From: Candidatus Rokuibacteriota bacterium
GTDB taxonomy: Bacteria; Methylomirabilota; Methylomirabilia; Rokubacteriales; CSP1-6
Direction of reading: 5' to 3'
DNA length: 39,865 nucleotides
Assembly (NCBI GenBank): GCA_040902295.1
Contig: JBBDXO010000294.1
Span: 3,232-43,096 of the forward strand
In this document: in pieces, positions 1-9,249 of the stretch
Layout: each line of letters starts with the position of its first letter
Position numbering within the stretch: the first letter of the stretch is position 1
The notes under the pieces: generated by a model
The model's database searches: none
Told to the model about the DNA's origin: nothing
The model's input: only the letters and a program-made list of their open reading frames with translations
Program-made: the position numbers and the translations under genes

Positions 1-539
1 GCGGGGGGAGGGGTGGGGGCGGGCTCGATGCCGGCGATGTGGTGGTAGGAGATCTTGAATTCGTCGCCGTGGCGGTTGAGGACGAGGCCGGAGGAGGTGA
101 GCTCCTGGAGGGTGCCGGGGATGGGGTCGGAGACCCGGACGAGGGAGACGAGGACCTGGTGGCCGACGTGGGCGACGGCTTCGCGTTGCCAGAGGACGGC
201 CATGGTGGCGGTCATCTCGTCGAGCTCGTCGATGGGGCCGATGCCCGGCGCCGTCGCGGCCATGGAGCCCGGGGGCTGGGGCCGCGACGCCGTGGGCGGG
301 TCGCCGGCGGCGCGGACGAGGCCGCGGCTGAGCTCGGAGAGCCGAGCCATGATCGAGCGCAGGATGACGAAGCCGCCGAGTGAGATGAGCAGCGAGAGGC
401 CGAGGCCGATCTGCGCGCTGTCGCGGCCGAGAGCCTCGATCGTGTAGAGCGTCCACGTGAAGATCAGCAGCGGAAGCACCGTCATGAGCACGAAGATCGT
501 CGAGGCCGCCTGGAGCAGGCTCTGCGACCGGTCCGCCAC
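1..539 (-). CDS. Hypothetical membrane protein (2 N-terminal TM helices, helical linker, small beta-rich C-terminal domain); runs off window edge
   Basis: Hand translation from GTG 539: MADRSQSLLQAASTIFVLMTVLPLLIFTWTLY...GLSLLISLGGFVILRSIM...; open to position 1, GC3-rich codons, starts 12 nt after the stop of 552..2519. Absent from the ORF track because it has no stop in the window. Confidence 0.75.
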   Translation of the reverse strand, partial: MADRSQSLLQAASTIFVLMTVLPLLIFTWTLYTIEALGRDSAQIGLGLSLLISLGGFVILRSIMARLSELSRGLVRAAGDPPTASRPQPPGSMAATAPGIGPIDELDEMTATMAVLWQREAVAHVGHQVLVSLVRVSDPIPGTLQELTSSGLVLNRHGDEFKISYHHIAGIEPAPTPPP

Positions 540-7279: not shown

Positions 7280-8140
7280 ATCGCCGCCCGCGATCTCCAG
7301 CGTCTGCGCGACGAGCGCTTCCGTCGCCGGCCGGCGCTGCGCGTCCGGAGCGCGCGCGGCGCGCTCGCCTTCGTCAACGCGGTCGGCTTCTGCTCCACCT
7401 TCTACTGCCTGCCGGAGGGTGTGCCGTGCCTCTGGGAGGCGGTGGTGGGCCGCGCCCATCCGCGCTGGCCGCGGCGCTCGCACCACGATGACGGCGTGGG
7501 CCTGACGTGGCGGCTGAAGGACGAGCTGCCGGCGGCGCGGCGGGTGTACTACGGCAAGCTCCTGCGCGGCCGCCCCATGCTGGTGGCGCTCGATCTGTTT
7601 CCGGCCTTCTACGCGCTCGCGCGCGGGCGCCAGCGCGCGCGCGACTACCGCGCCGAGTACGAGGGGGGCCGCCTGTCGCACACCGCCCGACGGCTGATGG
7701 ACGCGCTCGTGCGCGAGCACCCGCAGTACACCCGCGAGCTGCGCGGCAACACATTCCTGCTCGAGCCCGGCCGCACGCGCGAGTTCGAGCGCGCGATGGC
7801 CGAGCTGCAGCAGGGGCTGTGGATCGTCAAGAGCGAGGAGCGGTACGAGCCGACCTTCTCCTATCGCTGGGACCTGCTGGAGGCGTGGCTGCCGGAGGCC
7901 GTGGCCGAAGGCCGGCGCATCCCGCGCGCCGCCGCCCTCGACGCCGTGGTGGCACGCTACGCGAACGCCGCCGTCTTCACACGCCTTCCCATCCTGCGCC
8001 GCCTCTTCGCCGTCCCCGCCCCCGAAGCCGTTGCCAGCATCACCCGCCTGGTCAAGCGCGGCGTCCTCGTCGAGCGCGAAGTCCCCGGCCTACCAGGCCG
8101 CTGCCTGGTCATCACACGCAGGGGGGCTGTCGTCAGGTGA
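7280..8140 (+). CDS. AlkZ-related winged-helix protein (putative crosslink-repair DNA glycosylase); start uncertain
   Basis: PCLWEAV, WRLKDEL..RRVYYGKLLRGRP, FERAMAELQ..LWIVK, YRWDL. Frame is open and protein-like well upstream of the first canonical start (GTG 7421); 7280 is an ATC candidate. Confidence 0.6.
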   Translation: MAARDLQRLRDERFRRRPALRVRSARGALAFVNAVGFCSTFYCLPEGVPCLWEAVVGRAHPRWPRRSHHDDGVGLTWRLKDELPAARRVYYGKLLRGRPMLVALDLFPAFYALARGRQRARDYRAEYEGGRLSHTARRLMDALVREHPQYTRELRGNTFLLEPGRTREFERAMAELQQGLWIVKSEERYEPTFSYRWDLLEAWLPEAVAEGRRIPRAAALDAVVARYANAAVFTRLPILRRLFAVPAPEAVASITRLVKRGVLVEREVPGLPGRCLVITRRGAVVR

Positions 8141-8166
8141 GTGGGCAGTTGGCTCGCGCGCTTTGC

Positions 8167-8781
8167 TCAGCGCAGGTTGCCCCAGAGCGTGGGGCCTGCC
8201 TCGGCCACTTCTTGGAGGGTGTACGTGCGGCCGGGGCGGGGTTGGGTGGGAAGCCAGTGGTGGACGTGCTCGACCGAGCAGTAGAAGTTCACGAGCGGTC
8301 ACGTGTACTCGCGCAGGGAGCGACCGGGGTCGGCGTCCGCGGCCCGGATGACGACGTCGGGCGCCACGCGCGCGAGCTGCCCACCGGTGATCGAGATCGT
8401 GATGGGCGCGCGGCACGCGTGGCAGCGTGATGTCACGCGCGCGTCGGCGCCGAGCGCGGCGGGGATGCCCACGGCGTCCACGGCGCAGCAGGCGTACAGC
8501 GCAGGGCCCTCGCGCACGTGCAGCCGGTGGTCCGTGGGCGGGCGCGACAGCCCGCGCGCGACCGTGATGGCGCCGGCGCTGATGGCGAGCACGCCTTTCC
8601 CTTCGAGCGCGGCGAGTACGCGCCCGCCGGCTTCGGCGTCAATGTCGAGGCCGGAAAGGACGTCCGGGATCAGGGCGGGCGCGCCCGTGAGCAGCGCATT
8701 GAAGCAGGCGCGCGCGACGGCGACCTCTTCCGGGGTGTAGCCGCGCGCGCGCTCGGCGAGGTCGTCGAGAAAGCCGGCCAC
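8167..8781 (-). CDS. merB: MerB-like organomercurial lyase, predicted selenoprotein (Sec161 encoded by TGA 8301-8299), 204 aa
   Basis: GLSRPPTDHRL...LYACCAVDAVGIP (MerB Cys96/Asp99 motif) and VTSRCHAC (Cys117-like). Readthrough of TGA gives EYT-U-PLVNFYCSVEHVHHW...YTLQEVAEAGPTLWGNLR*, matching the MerB C159 'C.xVxFF.S' motif and C-terminal helix. Confidence 0.85.
8260..8292 (-). promoter_or_regulatory. Putative bacterial SECIS element
   Basis: mRNA reads UGA-CCGCUC-GUGAAC-UUCUAC-UGCUC-GGUC-GAGCA-C-GUCCAC: a 5-bp upper stem with a GGUC apical loop 23 nt after UGA, plus a lower stem GUGAAC/GUCCAC with one mismatch. Confidence 0.7.
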
Positions 8782-8788
8782 GCCCGCG

Positions 8789-8794
8789 ATTATA
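8789..8794 (-). promoter_or_regulatory. -10 box (TATAAT) for a probably leaderless merB mRNA
   Basis: Perfect TATAAT 7 nt upstream of GTG 8781 in an otherwise GC-rich region; no SD motif. Confidence 0.6.
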
Positions 8795-8817
8795 TGATTT
8801 ACACCCGGCCACGTCGC

Positions 8818-8833
8818 TGGCATGGCATTCGCT
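8818..8833 (+). promoter_or_regulatory. Putative sigma54 (-24/-12) promoter
   Basis: TGGCATGGCATTCGCT has GG-N10-GC spacing and ends 14 nt before ATG 8848. Confidence 0.5.
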
Positions 8834-8847
8834 CATTCGTTGCGGCC

Positions 8848-9249
8848 ATGAAGAAGAAACGGACCACAAAACGTCCGACCAAACGAGCCGAGAGCCCGCA
8901 GGACACCACGGAAGCCTCCGCGCGGCGCGGCGTGCCGGAGGAGGATCTGCAGGAGCCTGTCGGGGACGCGGTCGTCATGCCGAGCGACGCCGAGCGCCGG
9001 GCGGAGGAGGAGGCGGGCCGCTACCGATCGCGCATCAAACTGGCGGGCGGTGATCTCGACGCGGACTGGCGGCGCGCCGATCACGTCGGCGAGGAAGCCG
9101 TGGGCGGCAGCGTGGCCACGCCCGACCAGGACATCGTCGACAATCTCGGTGAGGCCCTGGGCGTGCCGCGGGCGCCCGACGAGGAAGTGCGGACGTCGCA
9201 GGAGATCCTCGAGGAGCGGGACCGCAACCGCTGGGAGCTGGAGGGGTGA
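8848..9249 (+). CDS. DUF6335 family protein
   Basis: LAGGDLDADW..A..VGEEAVGGSVATPDQDIVDNLGEALGV...ERDRNRWEL. Confidence 0.8.
   Translation: MKKKRTTKRPTKRAESPQDTTEASARRGVPEEDLQEPVGDAVVMPSDAERRAEEEAGRYRSRIKLAGGDLDADWRRADHVGEEAVGGSVATPDQDIVDNLGEALGVPRAPDEEVRTSQEILEERDRNRWELEG

Follow-up and report, generated by a model that had tools for sequence, protein, structure and literature searches.

In a stretch of 39,865 nucleotides from a Candidatus Rokuibacteriota bacterium (assembly GCA_040902295.1, contig JBBDXO010000294.1, positions 3,232 to 43,096; termed the window below), a gene related to the organomercurial lyase MerB is closed by a TGA codon at positions 8301-8299 of the minus strand, after which the frame continues for 43 sense codons. 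The question raised by this locus is whether this TGA terminates the protein or is read as selenocysteine (Sec) at the position occupied by Cys159 in MerB. Based on comparative sequence analysis, structure prediction and inspection of the decoding genes, a Sec-containing MerB-fold organometal lyase, most probably an organomercurial one, whose UGA is read via a stem-loop located within the coding sequence (CDS), is proposed with good confidence. Slightly firmer still is the decoding step taken by itself: homology and conservation make it highly probable that UGA 8301-8299 is decoded as Sec. The features required for the argument are as follows.

8302..8823, minus strand: first part of the MerB-like CDS, up to the putative Sec codon (open reading frame (ORF) list and translation)
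8485..8487, minus strand: codon equivalent to Cys96 of MerB (C113 counted from ATG 8823), invariant in A1, a 21-sequence alignment of homologs, and aligned to the Cys of LYAWCALD
8476..8478, minus strand: codon equivalent to Asp99 of MerB (D116 counted from ATG 8823), invariant in A1 and aligned to MerB of the PDB
8299..8301, minus strand: in-frame TGA predicted to be read as Sec, at the MerB Cys159 position (U175 counted from ATG 8823; U161 counted from GTG 8781)
8170..8298, minus strand: second part of the CDS with 43 codons, MerB C-terminal strand and helices (Pfam model positions 88-124/126), conserved and confidently modelled
8267..8280, minus strand: candidate minimal selenocysteine insertion sequence (SECIS) hairpin UGCUC-GGUC-GAGCA inside the CDS, loop at 8275-8272, corresponding to +24..+27 after the UGA
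8167..8169, minus strand: true stop codon TGA; in the closest homologs, the aligned position is likewise a stop (TAA, TAG or TGA)

The in-frame TGA among MerB homologs

Within the window genome and 60 relatives, a six-frame search yielded a match in 46 of 61 genomes, nearly all of them flagged with one TGA. The aligned column could be inspected in 30 loci from this search and contained TGA in 27, including locus L028 after a four-residue alignment slip had been corrected, and Cys in three. Furthermore, a pattern scan of one genome per species resulted in 79 loci, a spurious second match in L091 having been dropped, with TGA in 73 and TGC or TGT in six. After both searches had been merged and identical gene regions removed, 91 non-redundant genes remained, among which 84 feature TGA and seven Cys at the aligned column; neither Trp nor any other residue besides Sec and Cys was found there among the homologs compared. 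The alternation of Cys and TGA at this codon, recommended as a check in the first-pass annotation of the locus, was thus observed. The significance of the UGA therefore derives from homology and comparative conservation, and not from the open frame or the hairpin alone.

Hosts of these genes are mostly named Candidatus Rokuibacteriota or Methylomirabilota, and further ones belong to Chloroflexota, Sumerlaeota, Planctomycetota, Gemmatimonadota, Acidobacteria and Entotheonella or are represented by a Syntrophales and a Bacillota metagenome-assembled genome (MAG). Among the loci of the species scan, Cys forms occurred in archaeal MAGs and in Geobacter argillaceus. In a tally of the phylum, 157 of 251 genomes (four of which are marked unpublished and were used in the phylum tallies only) contained a match at E <= 1e-8. 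Among the 150 phylum matches listed, 121 possess the TGA and 29 do not; several of the latter are partial and end before the site, and most others come from two families in which Cys forms occur. The family is common in the phylum, not rare. The term 'orphan' initially given to the gene accordingly holds for its neighbourhood, which consists of unrelated genes, but not for its distribution.

Most relatives in a collection of 5.8 billion proteins are approximately 160-161 residues long and cover 73% of the query, and those retrieved end at the TGA. They are named 'organomercurial lyase', 'alkylmercury lyase' or 'hypothetical protein'. The expectation that standard pipelines would truncate the gene has therefore been borne out.

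The residues encoded beyond the TGA belong to the MerB domain. Applying the Pfam MerB model (PF03243; gathering cut-off of 27 bits), the truncated product scores 61.4 bits over model positions 1-72 and the read-through product 89.8 bits over positions 1-124/126, i.e., family membership over the whole domain is obtained with the TGA read through; the 43-residue tail by itself matches positions 88-124. A phmmer search against PDB sequences returned MerB2 (5c17, E = 4e-16) as best match and Escherichia coli MerB (1s6l/3f0o) at E = 1e-9. When aligned to the MerB chains of the PDB, among them the C160S mutant 3f2g by which the residue numbering was anchored, the TGA column is located on Cys159, and the segment L-Y-A-C-C-A-V-D pairs with L-Y-A-W-C-A-L-D of MerB, which contains Cys96 and Asp99. 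Three assignments made from the letters alone, namely TGA at Cys159, Cys96 and Asp99 in YACCAVD and a MerB C-terminus behind the TGA, are confirmed by these results. Judged from the alignments, Sec and the Cys96 and Asp99 equivalents would complete the MerB catalytic triad.

Moreover, the segment encoded after the TGA is conserved in A1 across the clades described below, with N179, S183, W190 and G198 being invariant in this alignment. A1 also served as input to an AlphaFold2 model, which reached a mean predicted local distance difference test (pLDDT) value of 88 and a predicted template modelling (TM) score of 0.85, with only residues 1-14 disordered. Comparison of this model to the PDB by means of Foldseek gave TM scores of 0.79/0.83 for 5c17 (MerB2) and 0.74/0.78 for 3f0o (MerB); all 11 matches at E <= 0.001 are MerB chains, and the next match has E = 0.16. 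According to the model, the protein is predicted to have the MerB fold.

Regarding the gene boundaries, ATG 8823 is the most upstream start, and the ORF obtained with translation table 11 (8823..8299, minus strand) is closed by TGA 8301-8299. The read-through segment, PLVNFYCSVEHVHHW...TLWGNLR, comprises 43 sense codons and extends to a second TGA, in agreement with the initial description of the frame. Translation from ATG 8823 leads to a product of 218 residues and translation from the alternative start GTG 8781-8779 to one of 204 residues; the TGA, originally given as codon 161, has this number when counted from GTG 8781 and is codon 175 when counted from ATG 8823. GTG 8781 is the more likely start codon, since database relatives and a homolog from the same genus start at this position, and since residues 1-14 counted from ATG 8823 are disordered (pLDDT below 50). 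A perfect TATAAT hexamer was noticed at window positions 8789-8794 (minus strand), 7 nt upstream of GTG 8781 and amid approximately 70% G+C. By its sequence and position, it could be the -10 box of a leaderless transcript starting at the GTG. A sigma-70 promoter scan of positions 7900-9100, in which a -35 box was also required, returned no sites.

Conserved hairpins and the selenocysteine machinery

The non-redundant genes include two sister clades. Clade A, to which the window gene belongs, is characterized by the motif HT-U-PLINFFCSVEH and consists of 20 Sec and four Cys genes. Clade B (motif SL-U-TTLNFFRSEEH; 64 Sec and three Cys genes) is 22-26% identical to clade A. In both clades the peptide following the UGA is conserved to a common C-terminus.

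The hairpin UGCUC-GGUC-GAGCA, described beforehand as beginning 18 nt after the UGA, is present exactly there (8280-8267). Its loop at +24..27 lies inside the range of 16-37 nt after the UGA that is given for the apical loop of bacterial SECIS elements in the accessible part of PMC10778597, and an apical hairpin of 5-6 bp is the usual minimal bacterial element according to the accessible part of PMC4607533. The corresponding clade B hairpin, UUCUUCC-GGUC-GGAAGAG, features 7 bp and a loop at +20..23. Codon usage within the stems was compared to that in the remainder of the same genes, with counts that overstate independence because the genes of a clade are related to one another: the clade B stem codons CGG, UCG and GAA were found in 64, 64 and 61 of 64 Sec genes, respectively, as opposed to 34% of Arg, 48% of Ser and 17% of Glu codons elsewhere, and the clade A codons UGC, UCN and GAG each in 20 of 20, as opposed to 73%, 68% and 63%. 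In clade B, the three GAG exceptions still pair via G-U, and the 3' arm is lost in all three non-redundant Cys forms. All 20 Sec genes of clade A, including those of low-G+C lineages, retain the 5-bp stem UGCUC/GAGCA. The loop reads GGUC throughout clade B; in clade A (n = 20) it reads GGUC in 13 genes, AGUU in four, AGUC in one and CGUG in two.

The hairpins of both clades consist of a short stem and a 4-nt loop, yet they differ in codon register, the loop being at +24 in clade A and at +20 in clade B. This combination of different register and same hairpin type speaks for selection at the RNA level. The case of close relatives all having Cys or Trp with no conserved hairpin, named at the outset as a sign of a nonsense mutation or sequencing error, was not encountered; instead, most relatives possess the TGA, and the hairpin is conserved. 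An Rfam scan of positions 8000-8900 (E <= 10) gave chance-level matches only and no SECIS family.

Genes of the Sec-decoding pathway were sought in the window's own assembly, which comprises 3.1 Mb in 311 contigs and is 93% complete. Both selD (346 bits vs. a cut-off of 125) and selB (361 bits vs. a cut-off of 242) were identified. The selD gene, located outside the window (L002; G000:C103:17552-18505), itself contains an in-frame TGA at the active site (S-C-A-G-U-A-S-K) followed by an 8-bp hairpin, CUCCUGGA-GAUC-UCCAGGAG. On this sequence evidence, SelD would itself be a selenoprotein in this organism.

Additional MerB-like selenoprotein forms were noted during the searches. The clade B loci (L026-L048 and L068-L127, e.g., L029:1486-2136, minus strand) share the 7-bp GGUC hairpin with its near-invariant rare codons, and in 16 of the 61 loci searched in this respect (L067-L127) genes for a LysW-like zinc-ribbon protein and a small membrane protein follow; the latter protein matches MerT weakly (21.7 bits vs. 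a cut-off of 32.9). A further clade, C (FL-U-TGMNLFRSEEH; L144-L147, i.e., G001:C482, G015:C16, G016:C533 and G206:C89), shows the same TGA column and the same GGUC hairpin and carries Glu at the Asp99 position (motif Q-C-G-F-E-A). It occurs in the genus of the window genome; in the window's own genome, for which the Pfam MerB search gave a single match, no clade C copy was found. Two MerB-like paralogs, L148 (G012:C148) and L149 (G049:C172), contain two in-frame TGAs each, with a hairpin after each of them, at the positions equivalent to Cys96 (W-Y-G-L-U-G-L-D) and Cys159; if both are read as Sec, selenocysteine would provide the two metal ligands in these enzymes. Finally, downstream of a clade B gene (L037; G054:C5), the frame contains no stop for 353 codons beyond the Sec codon and enters a second protein-like segment starting with M-S-D-T-G-F-G-P-V-V-T-T-A-W-L, which may be a fusion or an adjacent gene.

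Mechanism, substrate and competing explanations

In MerB, the metal is bound by cysteines and an Asp protonates the leaving carbon. In the mechanism proposed for the window protein, Sec-tRNA(Sec) would be delivered by SelB at UGA 8301-8299, with the short stem-loop inside the CDS (GGUC loop from +24) as a guide. The Cys thiolate and the Sec selenolate would then coordinate the metal atom of an organometallic substrate, which is most probably an organomercurial, and protonation of the leaving carbon by Asp would lead to cleavage of the C-metal bond. The selenolate would be both a better nucleophile and a tighter Hg ligand than a thiolate; because of this tighter hold on Hg(II), hand-off of the product may need a partner. 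A C-H-x-C motif was also observed at window positions 8413-8424 (C134, H135 and C137 counted from ATG 8823). Its conservation in clades A and B is complete or almost complete, and E. coli MerB keeps only the first Cys (Cys117). As suggested by its sequence, this motif could form a second metal site or a hand-off site.

The gene had initially been interpreted as a Sec-containing organometal lyase with methylmercury as a conceivable substrate. The Sec part of this interpretation is supported by the TGA/Cys alternation, the conserved hairpin and the presence of selD and selB, and methylmercury as substrate is deduced from family membership. Given Sec at the Cys159 position, organomercurials appear, by analogy with MerB, as the somewhat favoured substrate. 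A genuine MerB-fold selenoprotein whose physiological substrate is another organometal or organometalloid, or which acts in metal binding or transfer, is the strongest competing explanation, with roughly a third of our confidence.

Several observations weigh against an organomercurial-cleaving selenoprotein, and the first group of them concerns the link to mercury. No mer operon is present at the window locus: the neighbouring genes encode AlkZ-related, GIY-YIG, DUF6335, SRPBCC and Zn-ADH proteins, unrelated to mercury resistance, with no mer genes among them. The best match to the MerA model in the own genome reached 308 bits and thus remained below the cut-off of 454. Likewise, clustering of ORFs from 25 clade A loci revealed no neighbour common to all; clusters extending over multiple loci were shadow frames of the gene itself, except for a MerA-like gene (four loci) and a sigma-54 activator (four loci). 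Moreover, the protein scores below the cut-offs of both NCBIfam equivalog models for MerB (NF009710, 82.2 vs. 193 bits; NF033555, 70.3 vs. 200 bits), and therefore the substrate may differ. The additional C-H-x-C motif, absent from E. coli MerB, is in line with such a difference, as is the argument of the authors describing the related selenoprotein SaoL, in the accessible part of their preprint, that Sec at the metal site leaves the substrate uncertain (bioRxiv 10.1101/2022.07.06.499078). On the other hand, all three MerB catalytic positions are kept, and the nearest solved structures are organomercurial lyases. Furthermore, a bona fide MerA gene (TIGR02053, 571 bits vs. a cut-off of 454, HMA domain) is located directly downstream of the Sec-type clade A gene at L053 (L025 is the same gene), and MerA-like genes adjoin three further loci, namely L059 (Chloroflexota, Sec form), L067 and L064 (both Cys forms).

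The second group of unfavourable observations concerns decoding. They would be compatible with a TGA functioning as true stop codon, resulting either in a truncated protein of 160/174 residues or in a pseudogene owing to a nonsense mutation of recent origin or to an error in sequencing; the open frame and the hairpin would then be by-products of high G+C content. In the window (70.6% G+C), 439 of 1113 stop codons counted in six frames precede at least 43 open codons, and the 43-codon open continuation alone is not significant. The 60 nt following the UGA fold with -11.3 kcal/mol as compared to -11.0 +/- 2.5 kcal/mol for shuffled sequences (z = -0.12), a stability equalled or exceeded by 87 of 200 shuffles; folding energy gave no signal and was dropped as SECIS evidence. 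Conservation of the peptide C-S-V-E-H by itself partly fixes the clade A stem as well as the G-U of its loop, and the stem persists in two of four Cys-type genes (L064 and L084), for which reasons the hairpin evidence is weaker for clade A than for clade B. In addition, the TGA is treated as the end of the protein by gene callers and in database entries.

Of the selABCD set, whose absence had been named as a refutation of Sec, selD and selB were recovered as described above, and neither selA nor tRNA-Sec was found in the 93%-complete assembly. The tRNA was searched for by means of Rfam and ARAGORN, and as only 27 tRNAs were recovered in total, its absence says little. Concerning selA, the gene exceeded the cut-off in 21 of 26 relatives, including both genomes of the same genus, and it is located directly upstream of selB in all three relatives checked. 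In the own assembly, the selB-carrying contig C52 has only 31 nt ahead of selB, and the missing selA is most simply explained by an assembly gap. Finally, selA was detected above cut-off in all five Cys-form genomes tested, so that an interpretation of Cys forms as genomes that have lost the Sec trait was ruled out; one Cys-form genome (G009) gave no selA match.

A true stop is nevertheless contradicted by the comparative data and is considered very unlikely, whether as truncation, as mutation or as a G+C artefact. The same TGA is present in 84 of the 91 non-redundant homologs, which range from approximately 25% to 93% identity and originate from several phyla, and the other seven carry Cys. 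The MerB domain is incomplete without the conserved peptide downstream of the TGA, and truncation would cost the third catalytic residue as well as the last strand and helices. An alternative genetic code in which TGA specifies an ordinary amino acid throughout the genome, without Sec, and to which in-frame TGAs flagged in several genes of the lineage might point, is more improbable still, as TGA is the commonest stop triplet in the window (842 of 1117, six frames), the gene itself ends at TGA 8169-8167 where homologs have TAA, TAG or TGA, homologs lacking the TGA always have Cys at the column (7/7), and the other in-frame TGA examined sits at the SelD active site, a classical Sec position.

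Scope and comparison with known systems

Beyond the single gene, the Sec-type MerB homologs may tentatively be regarded as an undescribed, phylum-wide set of Sec-dependent MerB enzymes, in which clade A would represent a selenium-based methylmercury demethylase of soils and groundwater. Clade A would be invisible to current merB surveys because databases hold only the truncated form. In Rokubacteria/Methylomirabilota the set would comprise three or more clades, with related genes present in Chloroflexota, Sumerlaeota, Planctomycetota, Entotheonella and further groups, and a rare form would have Sec at both of the metal-binding positions. Of the clades, A is the nearest to true MerB and in some cases would occur as a fused merB-merA unit.

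To our knowledge, MerB is the only known methylmercury-detoxifying enzyme. Environmental surveys count merB genes to gauge demethylation potential. Sec-type MerB, present in well over half of the sampled phylum genomes, would be missed or mis-scored in such surveys because public entries stop at the UGA and are devoid of the third catalytic residue. Neither clade A nor clade B is captured by any model of NCBIfam release 20.0, and a curated model including the Sec position would therefore correct the truncated entries. Moreover, these proteins offer a natural test of the effect of a selenolate at the Hg-binding site of a C-Hg lyase, which bears on the antagonism between selenium and mercury.

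Concerning novelty, the principle of a MerB-like protein with Sec at the Cys159 position has already been published as SaoL; the advance consists of scope and context. What is notable is the closeness to true MerB, the occasional pairing with merA, the abundance in one phylum and the systematic mis-annotation. For clades A and B, no description was found in the searchable literature, the searches having returned mentions related to SaoL only, and recent surveys or supplements could already list the family. Neither Zhang & Gladyshev 2008 nor Peng et al. 2016 mentions 'MerB' in the main text, and the term is likewise absent from deep-Sep (PMC12013277). In the accessible parts of a 2022 review and a 2026 review (PMC13188914), SaoL is the sole MerB-like selenoprotein family named; the latter also cites, in the same accessible part, a 2026 survey of groundwater MAGs reporting a Methylomirabilota MAG with 63 predicted selenoprotein genes. 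Within these searches, the initial impression that this version of the protein is undescribed holds for these clades, as does the initial reservation that the class may not be wholly new.

Regarding the RNA element, the fdhF gene of E. coli K-12 continues after its TGA with ...GGUUGCA-GGUC-UGCACC, GGUC being located at +19..+22. The complementarity is visible in the fdhF sequence itself, and the GGUC bases are those which we take to form the loop; the identity of loop letters noticed in the first pass was confirmed in this sequence. The candidate element resembles the fdhF SECIS in its short G+C-rich stem, its GGUC tetraloop and its location inside the CDS. The spacing differs slightly, with the loop at +19..22 in fdhF as compared to +24..27 in the window gene and +20..23 in clade B. 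Unlike in fdhF, only 5 bp are conserved here, and neither a conserved bulged U nor a lower stem was seen.

SaoL is the closest precedent, and its mention in the first-pass annotation proved accurate: according to the accessible part of the preprint by Haft & Gwadz (bioRxiv 10.1101/2022.07.06.499078), the 'selenocysteine-assisted organometallic lyase' has a C-U motif with Sec at Cys159, is encoded in a nine-gene SAO locus of anaerobes and is truncated in databases. The window protein shares with SaoL the MerB fold (PF03243), the Cys96 and Asp99 equivalents, Sec aligned with Cys159 and an in-frame UGA approximately 45-50 codons before the true C-terminus at which database entries are truncated. 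It is nevertheless distinct. In contrast to the C-U motif of SaoL, the window protein features E-Y-T-U-P, clade A T-U and clade B L-U, and with the SaoL model (NCBIfam NF040728) the window protein scores 49.4 bits and its clade relatives 48-78 bits, as compared to a cut-off of 140. The window gene lacks an SAO neighbourhood. In the own genome, SaoB (NF040727) and SaoC (NF040734) gave no match in searches run without a positive control, and the best SaoP (NF040733) score, obtained on other contigs, was 166 bits vs. a cut-off of 295. Identity with SaoL was consequently ruled out on the basis of the model score, the T-U motif and the lack of SAO genes over cut-off. The hosts differ as well: SaoL occurs in Firmicutes, spirochaetes and deltaproteobacterial anaerobes, whereas the genes described here originate mainly from MAGs of the Rokubacteria/Methylomirabilota type.

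Canonical MerB (plasmid R831b; PDB 1s6l, 3f0o, 3f0p) differs from the window protein by having Cys159 in place of Sec and by lacking the complete C-H-x-C motif. Its mer-operon context (merA, merR, merT/P) is not found at the window locus, and merA is located beside the clade A gene L053. The likeness to canonical MerB and MerB2 (5c17) extends over the full-length fold (TM 0.74-0.83), the Cys96 and Asp99 equivalents and the hydrophobic 'xVNFFxS' strand after position 159, and some clade members adjoin merA. In terms of hidden Markov model scores, the window protein is nearer to canonical MerB than to SaoL (82 vs. 49 bits).

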